From Shigella phage sb4: a stretch of DNA of 64,000 nt. The DNA lies in sequence record PQ666542; one strand, given 5' to 3'. The position numbers and the translations under genes were made by a program. The notes beneath the pieces were generated by a model. The model saw nothing but the letters and a program-made list of their open reading frames with translations, had not been told where the DNA came from and made no database searches. Position 1 is the stretch's first letter. Each line of letters opens with the position of its first letter. This document shows, one piece after another, positions 15,792 through 17,502 of this stretch.

Positions 15792-17502
15792 TAACCTTAA
15801 TTGGTTTGTTGGTGTTGTTGAAGATAGAATGGACCCATTAAAATTAGGTCGTGTTCGTGTTCGTGTAGTTGGTCTGCACCCACCTCAAAGAGCACAAGGC
15901 GACGTAATGGGTATTCCAACCGATAAATTACCATGGATGTCAGTTATTCAACCCATAACTTCTGCAGCGATGTCTGGAATTGGAGGCTCCGTTACTGGTC
16001 CAGTAGAAGGAACTAGAGTTTATGGTCATTTTTTAGACAAATGGAAAACTAACGGACTTGTCCTTGGCACGTATGGTGGAATAGTTCGCGAAAAGCCTAA
16101 TAGACTTGAAGGATTTTCTGACCCAACTGGACAGTATCCTAGACGTCTAGGAAATGATACTAACGTATTAAACCAAGGCGGAGAAGTAGGATATGATTCG
16201 TCTTCTAATATTATCCAAGATAGCAATCTAGACACTGCGATAAATCCTGATGATAGACCATTATCAGAAATTCCAACTGATGATAATCCAAATATGTCAA
16301 TGGCTGAAATGCTTCGCCGTGATGAAGGATTAAGACTAAAAGTTTATTGGGATACTGAAGGATATCCGACAATTGGTATTGGTCATCTTATCATGAAGCA
16401 GCCAGTTCGTGATATGACCCAAATTAATAAAGTTTTATCAAAACAAGTTGGTCGTGAAATTACCGGAAATCCAGGTTCTATTACAATGGAAGAAGCGGTA
16501 ACTTTATTTGAACGTGATTTAGCTGATATGCAACGTGACATTAAATCACATTCTAAAGTTGGCCCAGTTTGGCAAGCAGTTAATCGTTCTCGTCAAATGG
16601 CGTTAGAAAATATGGCATTTCAGATGGGCGTTGGCGGTGTAGCTAAATTTAACACAATGTTAACTGCTATGTTAGCCGGAGATTGGGAAAAAGCATATAA
16701 AGCTGGCCGTGATTCATTGTGGTATCAACAAACAAAAGGCCGTGCATCCCGTGTTACCATGATTATTCTTACAGGTAATTTGGAATCATATGGTATTGAA
16801 GTGAAAACACCAGCTAGGTCTTTGTCAGCAATGGCTGCTACTGTAGCAAAGTATTCTGATCCAGCTGACCCTCCTATTCCGAATGATTCGAGAATTTTAT
16901 TTAATGAACCTGTTTCTTCATATAAAGGTGAATATTCGTATGTTCATACAATGGAAACTGAAAGCGGTCATATTCAGGAGTTTGATGATACCCCTGGGCA
17001 AGAACGATACAGATTAGTTCATCCGACTGGAACATATGAGGAAGTATCACCGTCAGGAAGAAGAACAAGAAAAACTGTTGATAATTTATATGATATAACA
17101 AATGCTGATGGTAATTTTTTGGTAGCTGGCTATAAAAAGACTAACGTCGGTGGGTCAGAAATTTATTACAACATGGATAATCGTCTCCACCAAATAGATG
17201 GAAGCAATACAATATTTGTACGTGGCGATGAAACTAAGACGGTTGAAGGTAATGGAACTATCCTAGTCAAAGGTAATGTTACTATTGTAGTTGAAGGTAA
17301 TGCTGACATTACAGTTAAAGGAGATGCTACCACTTTAGTTGAAGGAAATCAGACTAATACAGTAAATGGAAATCTTTCTTGGATAGTTGCTGGGACAGTT
17401 GATTGAGACGTTGGTGGCGATTGGACAGAAAAAATGGCATCTATGAGTTCTATTTCATCTGGTCAATACACAATTGATGGATCGTGGATTGACATTGGCT
17501 AA
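15775..17502 (+). pseudogene. 5: gp5 baseplate hub with lysozyme domain, interrupted by TGA at codon 544
   Basis: Frame 15775-17502 is 575 codons as in T4 gp5; TGA at 17404-17406 where T4 has Trp; VEGN beta-helix repeats continue after it. Confidence 0.9.

Follow-up and report, generated by a model that had tools for sequence, protein, structure and literature searches.

An in-frame opal codon in the gp5 spike gene of Shigella phage sb4 very probably reflects an error of the sequence record

The sequence record of Shigella phage sb4 (PQ666542) contains an in-frame TGA near the 3' end of gene 5, which codes for the baseplate central spike/tail lysozyme gp5. The question raised by this locus is whether the phage makes a spike without its tip or whether the stop belongs to the sequence record only. 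We analyzed a stretch of 64,000 nucleotides of this record, hereafter referred to as the window. The gp5 frame starts with ATG at 15775 and reaches TGA at 17404-17406 after 543 codons; when read past TGA in the same frame, it continues for 31 more codons up to TAA at 17501-17503, giving 575 codons in total and a gene length of 1,728 nt. The features of the locus are listed below.

15775..17503, plus strand: gp5 orthologue (baseplate central spike / tail lysozyme), 575 codons and TAA, interrupted at codon 544
16853..17485, plus strand: other private replacements in the C-terminal part of gp5 (S360Y, K377N, P388S, D453Y, K537I, R571W)
17404..17406, plus strand: in-frame TGA in place of Trp544 (TGG), a single G>A at 17406
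17407..17503, plus strand: 31 codons (residues 545-575) and TAA, carrying on the gp5 frame, with the private R571W at 17485
17537..18031, plus strand: gp5.1 orthologue, no internal stop
18032..18325, plus strand: gp5.4 orthologue (PAAR spike tip), no internal stop; PF05488 PAAR_motif, E=7.9e-10

The order of genes (gp53, gp5, gp5.1, gp5.4 with the PAAR motif, and gp6) was that of the T4-type gp5 locus. Window gp5 was compared with 11 relatives, including T4, pSs-1, KFS-EC3, ESh26, sb2, sb3, ime09, two IMG/VR contigs and two partial records. The alignment was gap-free and colinear with T4 gene 5 and the 10 other relatives, and codon 544 was TGG (Trp) in all 11, T4 among them. The initial annotation, made from the sequence alone, had described TGA in place of Trp at codon 544 of 575 and intact gp5.1 and gp5.4 genes downstream, and the alignment to T4 that it proposed bears out the former just as the absence of internal stops bears out the latter. 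Its figure of 31 lost residues should be corrected: 31 is the number of codons after the stop, and 32 residues (544-575) would be missing from the product.

Pfam analysis of the 543-residue product identified Gp5_OB (PF06714) at residues 33-173 (E=2.2e-65), Phage_lysozyme (PF00959) at residues 183-310 (E=3.5e-12) and Gp5_C repeats; residues 545-575 are encoded in frame, but lie beyond the end of the ORF as it stands, at residue 543. With Trp544 restored, residues 478-575 aligned end to end with the T4 gp5 chains 1pdl, 1k28 and 4ku0, and this segment was identical to T4 gp5 except for I505V, K537I, W544* and R571W. The window gene and T4 gp5 (PDB 1K28, 1PDL, 4KU0) share a colinear 575-codon gene with an OB-fold, a lysozyme domain and a triple-stranded beta-helix, whereas the window differs from T4 in the TGA at Trp544 and in 7 private replacements.

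Against the 11 relatives, gp5 had 14 private changes, which comprised 6 synonymous transitions and 8 replacements (I95L at 16057, S360Y, K377N, P388S, D453Y, K537I, W544* and R571W). All eight sites were invariant in the relatives, and 6 of the 8 replacements were transversions. The same eight represented every amino-acid difference from gp5 of pSs-1; once the private changes of the window are set aside, the two proteins are identical.

Published work on the T4 spike indicates what such a truncation would mean. Residues 525-575 of gp5 form the tip of the beta-helix and its sole well-packed hydrophobic core, and the folding nucleus of the helix, residues 483-525, lies upstream of the stop (PMC4576200). 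The gp5.4 protein docks on the spike trimer at its flat C-terminal tip; particles can be assembled without it, but it is important for infection (PMC12407873). Since both the tip residues and the gp5.4-binding site are located at the C-terminal end, a hypothetical 543-residue gp5 would be without the gp5.4 docking surface. If real, the truncation would show by a natural experiment whether infection by T4-type phages can do without the hydrophobic spike tip and the PAAR cap; the data described below give no reason to think that it is.

A search of 50,697 phage records identified the window as a Tequatrovirus segment whose best match was Shigella phage pSs-1 (NC_025829), with 97.8% identity over 24 kb and 97.7% over window positions 1-49471, the genes being colinear. 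No relative closer than pSs-1 was found among these records. Two partial records, Ec3-ASingh and Ec2-ASingh, were considered as closer relatives and contained the TGG form of the probe described next, but were rejected at ~96% identity to the window.

The opal allele was searched for with a 49-mer (17385-17433) in which each 28-base seed spanned position 17406. With TGA, this probe was found in none of the 50,697 phage records; with the one base restored to TGG, it was found in 421 phage records, of which 13 matched at 100% identity. A degenerate pattern had two matches in IMG/VR, both with TGG, and a 29-mer with TGA had no match in IMG/VR. A 20-mer with TGA occurred in four contigs of metagenome and genome collections, which were discarded as bare 20-nt chance matches in unrelated organisms that could not be extended. 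The TGA allele was found in no T4-like contig from IMG/VR, metagenomes or genomes, and we found no record of a 543-aa gp5 product.

When the genes of pSs-1 were mapped onto the window, 33 in-frame stops were detected in 20 of 70 genes, as distributed below together with other disrupted frames. In contrast, pSs-1 itself was free of in-frame stops and had no private nonsense change.

One stop each: vs.3, Ip4-like, Ip5-like, gp5, gp10, gp13, gp15, gp16, gp24, gp26, gp48
Two stops each: e lysozyme, gp6, gp12, gp14, gp27, gp28
Three stops each: gp7, uvsW
Four stops: rnlB
349..58590: span with the other 32 premature stops, the denV start loss, the lost stop and the gp25 frameshift
2979-3395, minus strand: denV, start codon lost (ATG>ATT)
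51538-51762, minus strand: small ORF, stop codon lost (TAA>TAT)
52242-52639, minus strand: gp25, frameshift by a 1-nt deletion
10494-10779, minus strand, and 11194-11380, minus strand: trna.2-like ORF (2-nt deletion) and trna.4-like ORF (1-nt insertion), both frameshifted relative to pSs-1

The stops were of all three types (19 TAA, 7 TAG and 7 TGA) and replaced nine kinds of residues (E, K, C, L, G, W, Y, Q and S). From T4 genetics, virion assembly or packaging is known to require gp6, gp7, gp10, gp12-16, gp24, gp26, gp27, gp28 and gp48, all of which were interrupted. Two premature stops were located in gp27, the partner of gp5 in the hub. With 33 stops in 54.8 kb of coding sequence, the density was 0.60 per kb, which corresponds to an expectation of 1.04 stops for gp5. 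The single gp5 stop is thus what the window-wide noise predicts, leaving nothing to explain in gp5. The other 32 stops share the explanation of the gp5 stop, and each might be taken for a "finding" in its own right. Any lone stop, lost start or radical substitution in this sequence should therefore be weighed against a coding-sequence background of ~0.6 premature stops per kb.

We also examined the substitutions for signs of selection. Six genomes (the window, pSs-1, sb2, sb3, T4 and ime09) were compared over the 44,401 columns that they all share, and a change was defined as private when one genome differed and the other five agreed. The private changes in five of these genomes were as follows.

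Window: 196 missense, 20 nonsense, 109 synonymous
pSs-1: 22 missense, 0 nonsense, 94 synonymous
sb3: 98 missense, 0 nonsense, 249 synonymous
T4: 204 missense, 0 nonsense, 699 synonymous
ime09: 69 missense, 0 nonsense, 210 synonymous

Synonymous changes formed the majority in pSs-1, sb3, T4 and ime09, but not in the window. Private transversions in the coding sequence of the window comprised 148 missense, 17 nonsense and 17 synonymous changes. In a simulation without selection, in which the mutation spectrum of the window was placed at random coding sites 1,000 times, the corresponding numbers were 137±6, 16±4 and 29±5. Nonsense codons therefore arose at the rate expected in the absence of selection, and the private changes of the window showed no trace of purifying selection. 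The initial suggestion that the opal codon would remove the tip of the needle is correct in principle, as the packed tip and the gp5.4-binding end both lie in the affected part; a tipless spike in a real phage is not supported, given that premature stops occur in so many genes at this unselected rate.

The spectrum of private changes (window positions 1-49471) was biased to A/T, with 52 C>A, 51 T>A, 46 A>T and 34 G>T versus 1 C>G and 2 G>C, whereas transitions prevail in natural divergence. Analysis of context and strand revealed a modest context effect: in 32 of the 52 C>A changes the next base was T, and G>T was often followed by A. Private transversions were also clustered, with 36 of 217 gaps being 10 nt or shorter versus ~10 expected, and indels relative to pSs-1 were rare. 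One block of 4.7 kb (4465-9209; the e.2 to e.8 region and neighbouring ORFs) had 3 differences from pSs-1 and no noise-like changes; recent recombination, better coverage or derivation from a reference could account for it. Local clusters of substitutions can be seen, for example, at 447-549, 19482-19488 and 23160-23170.

Taken together, the TGA at codon 544 of gp5 is very probably an error or corruption at the level of the sequence, and not a property of the living phage. The true sequence underneath would be that of a Tequatrovirus close to pSs-1, overlaid with additional point substitutions at ~0.5%, most of which are transversions to A or T and some of which are C>T or G>A. Such an overlay would be patchy, clustered and random with respect to coding sequence, so that missense and nonsense changes would fall in essential genes at the chance rate, and the gp5 opal would be one of the overlaid substitutions. 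The excess of substitutions, its unselected character and its spread over the whole window are direct observations, from which we infer an origin in sequencing, consensus building or other sequence handling. Uneven coverage, a reference-guided consensus or other handling could be the source of the noise pattern. Some points count against an error: the noise is not uniform, indels are very few, and the W544* change is a G>A transition, which belongs to the less distinctive class of the excess. Two specific types of error were considered and fitted poorly, namely uniform in-silico noise, in view of the clustering, the clean block at 4465-9209 and the near absence of C>G and G>C, and raw long-read consensus or homopolymer error, in view of the rarity of indels. 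No viable phage could be encoded by the sequence in its present form, and the gp5 stop accordingly speaks on sequence quality and not on spike biology.

A single-base change of a sense codon to a stop in an essential gene is also what characterizes the classical conditional-lethal nonsense mutants of T4 (amber or opal, grown on suppressor hosts). However, these mutants have one or a few stops of one type and are otherwise wild-type, whereas the window has 33 stops of three types and ~200 unselected missense changes. The window was therefore rejected as a laboratory nonsense mutant.

The substitutions might instead be physically present in the DNA that was sequenced, for example, if the template had been heavily damaged or mutagenized, or had been amplified from a single molecule; the TGA would then be real in that DNA and the genome dead. 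Most of the excess is made up of purine>T substitutions and the complementary ones (C>A, G>T, A>T, T>A), with C>T and G>A in addition, a combination that resembles the insertion of A by polymerase opposite abasic sites together with cytosine deamination, and its clustering and patchiness would suit local damage or uneven coverage. On the other hand, a clonal phage stock cannot hold 33 nonsense mutations in needed genes, and we regard this origin as unlikely. Either way, whether the substitutions are physical or, as we prefer, arose in the handling of the sequence, the record describes no functioning gp5 variant.

It is very unlikely that gene 5 carries a genuine opal codon in a viable phage, in which either a 543-residue spike would assemble without the tip and gp5.4, or the host tRNA-Trp would read UGA at a low level. 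TGG>TGA is the sole change for which near-cognate readthrough restores the native residue, and this counts in favor of such a phage, as do the position of the folding nucleus upstream of the stop (PMC4576200) and the dispensability of gp5.4 for particle assembly (PMC12407873). These points have to be set against the noise, which already predicts the gp5 stop, the 7 further private replacements in the same protein, the interruption of gp27 together with that of at least 15 further genes for structural proteins or packaging, and the absence of the TGA 49-mer from every other phage record searched. In addition, the truncation would remove part of the only well-packed hydrophobic core of the helix (residues 525-575; PMC4576200). 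A narrower version, in which a viable phage truly has the Trp544 opal and errors are confined to the other stops, would imply either a blunt, gp5.4-less needle of 543 residues or dependence on low-level UGA readthrough by tRNA-Trp for a small amount of full-length gp5; we consider it slightly more doubtful still.

A reassigned stop codon (for example, TGA decoded as Trp) or suppression encoded by the phage has practically no chance of being correct: although the gp5 TGA and TAG codons in gp12 and uvsW all stand in place of Trp codons, it is ruled out by the mixture of in-frame stop types and of the nine residues replaced, which gives no consistent one-codon-one-residue pattern, by the use of TGA as the normal terminator of 11 of 70 genes, by the standard code of all relatives, and by the lack of a suppressor tRNA among the 10 tRNAs within the 64-kb window, where tRNA-Arg has the anticodon UCU and not the opal-suppressing UCA. 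These tRNA genes form one cluster.

9565..10396, minus strand: cluster of 10 tRNA genes, all with sense anticodons

Sequence error thus remains the preferred explanation of the opal codon, and another Shigella phage record, sb2 (PQ666540), may be compared with the window in this regard. The sb2 record has 2 private nonsense changes and its tail sheath gene (35761-37584) is annotated in two pieces; on account of this split annotation, the record probably also contains sequence errors. As in the window, private nonsense changes split essential genes in sb2, but the density in the window is ~10 times higher.

Two further features of gene content were observed. At 18031-18032 in the window, gp5.1 runs straight into gp5.4; the segC homing endonuclease and gene 5.3, which are located between 5.1 and 5.4 in T4 (80196-80791), are absent from both the window and pSs-1. 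In addition, a GTG-start ORF (37780-38397, plus strand) is situated between gp18 and gp19. It is 100% identical in pSs-1 and absent from this position in T4, a distribution that suggests an insertion-type accessory gene.
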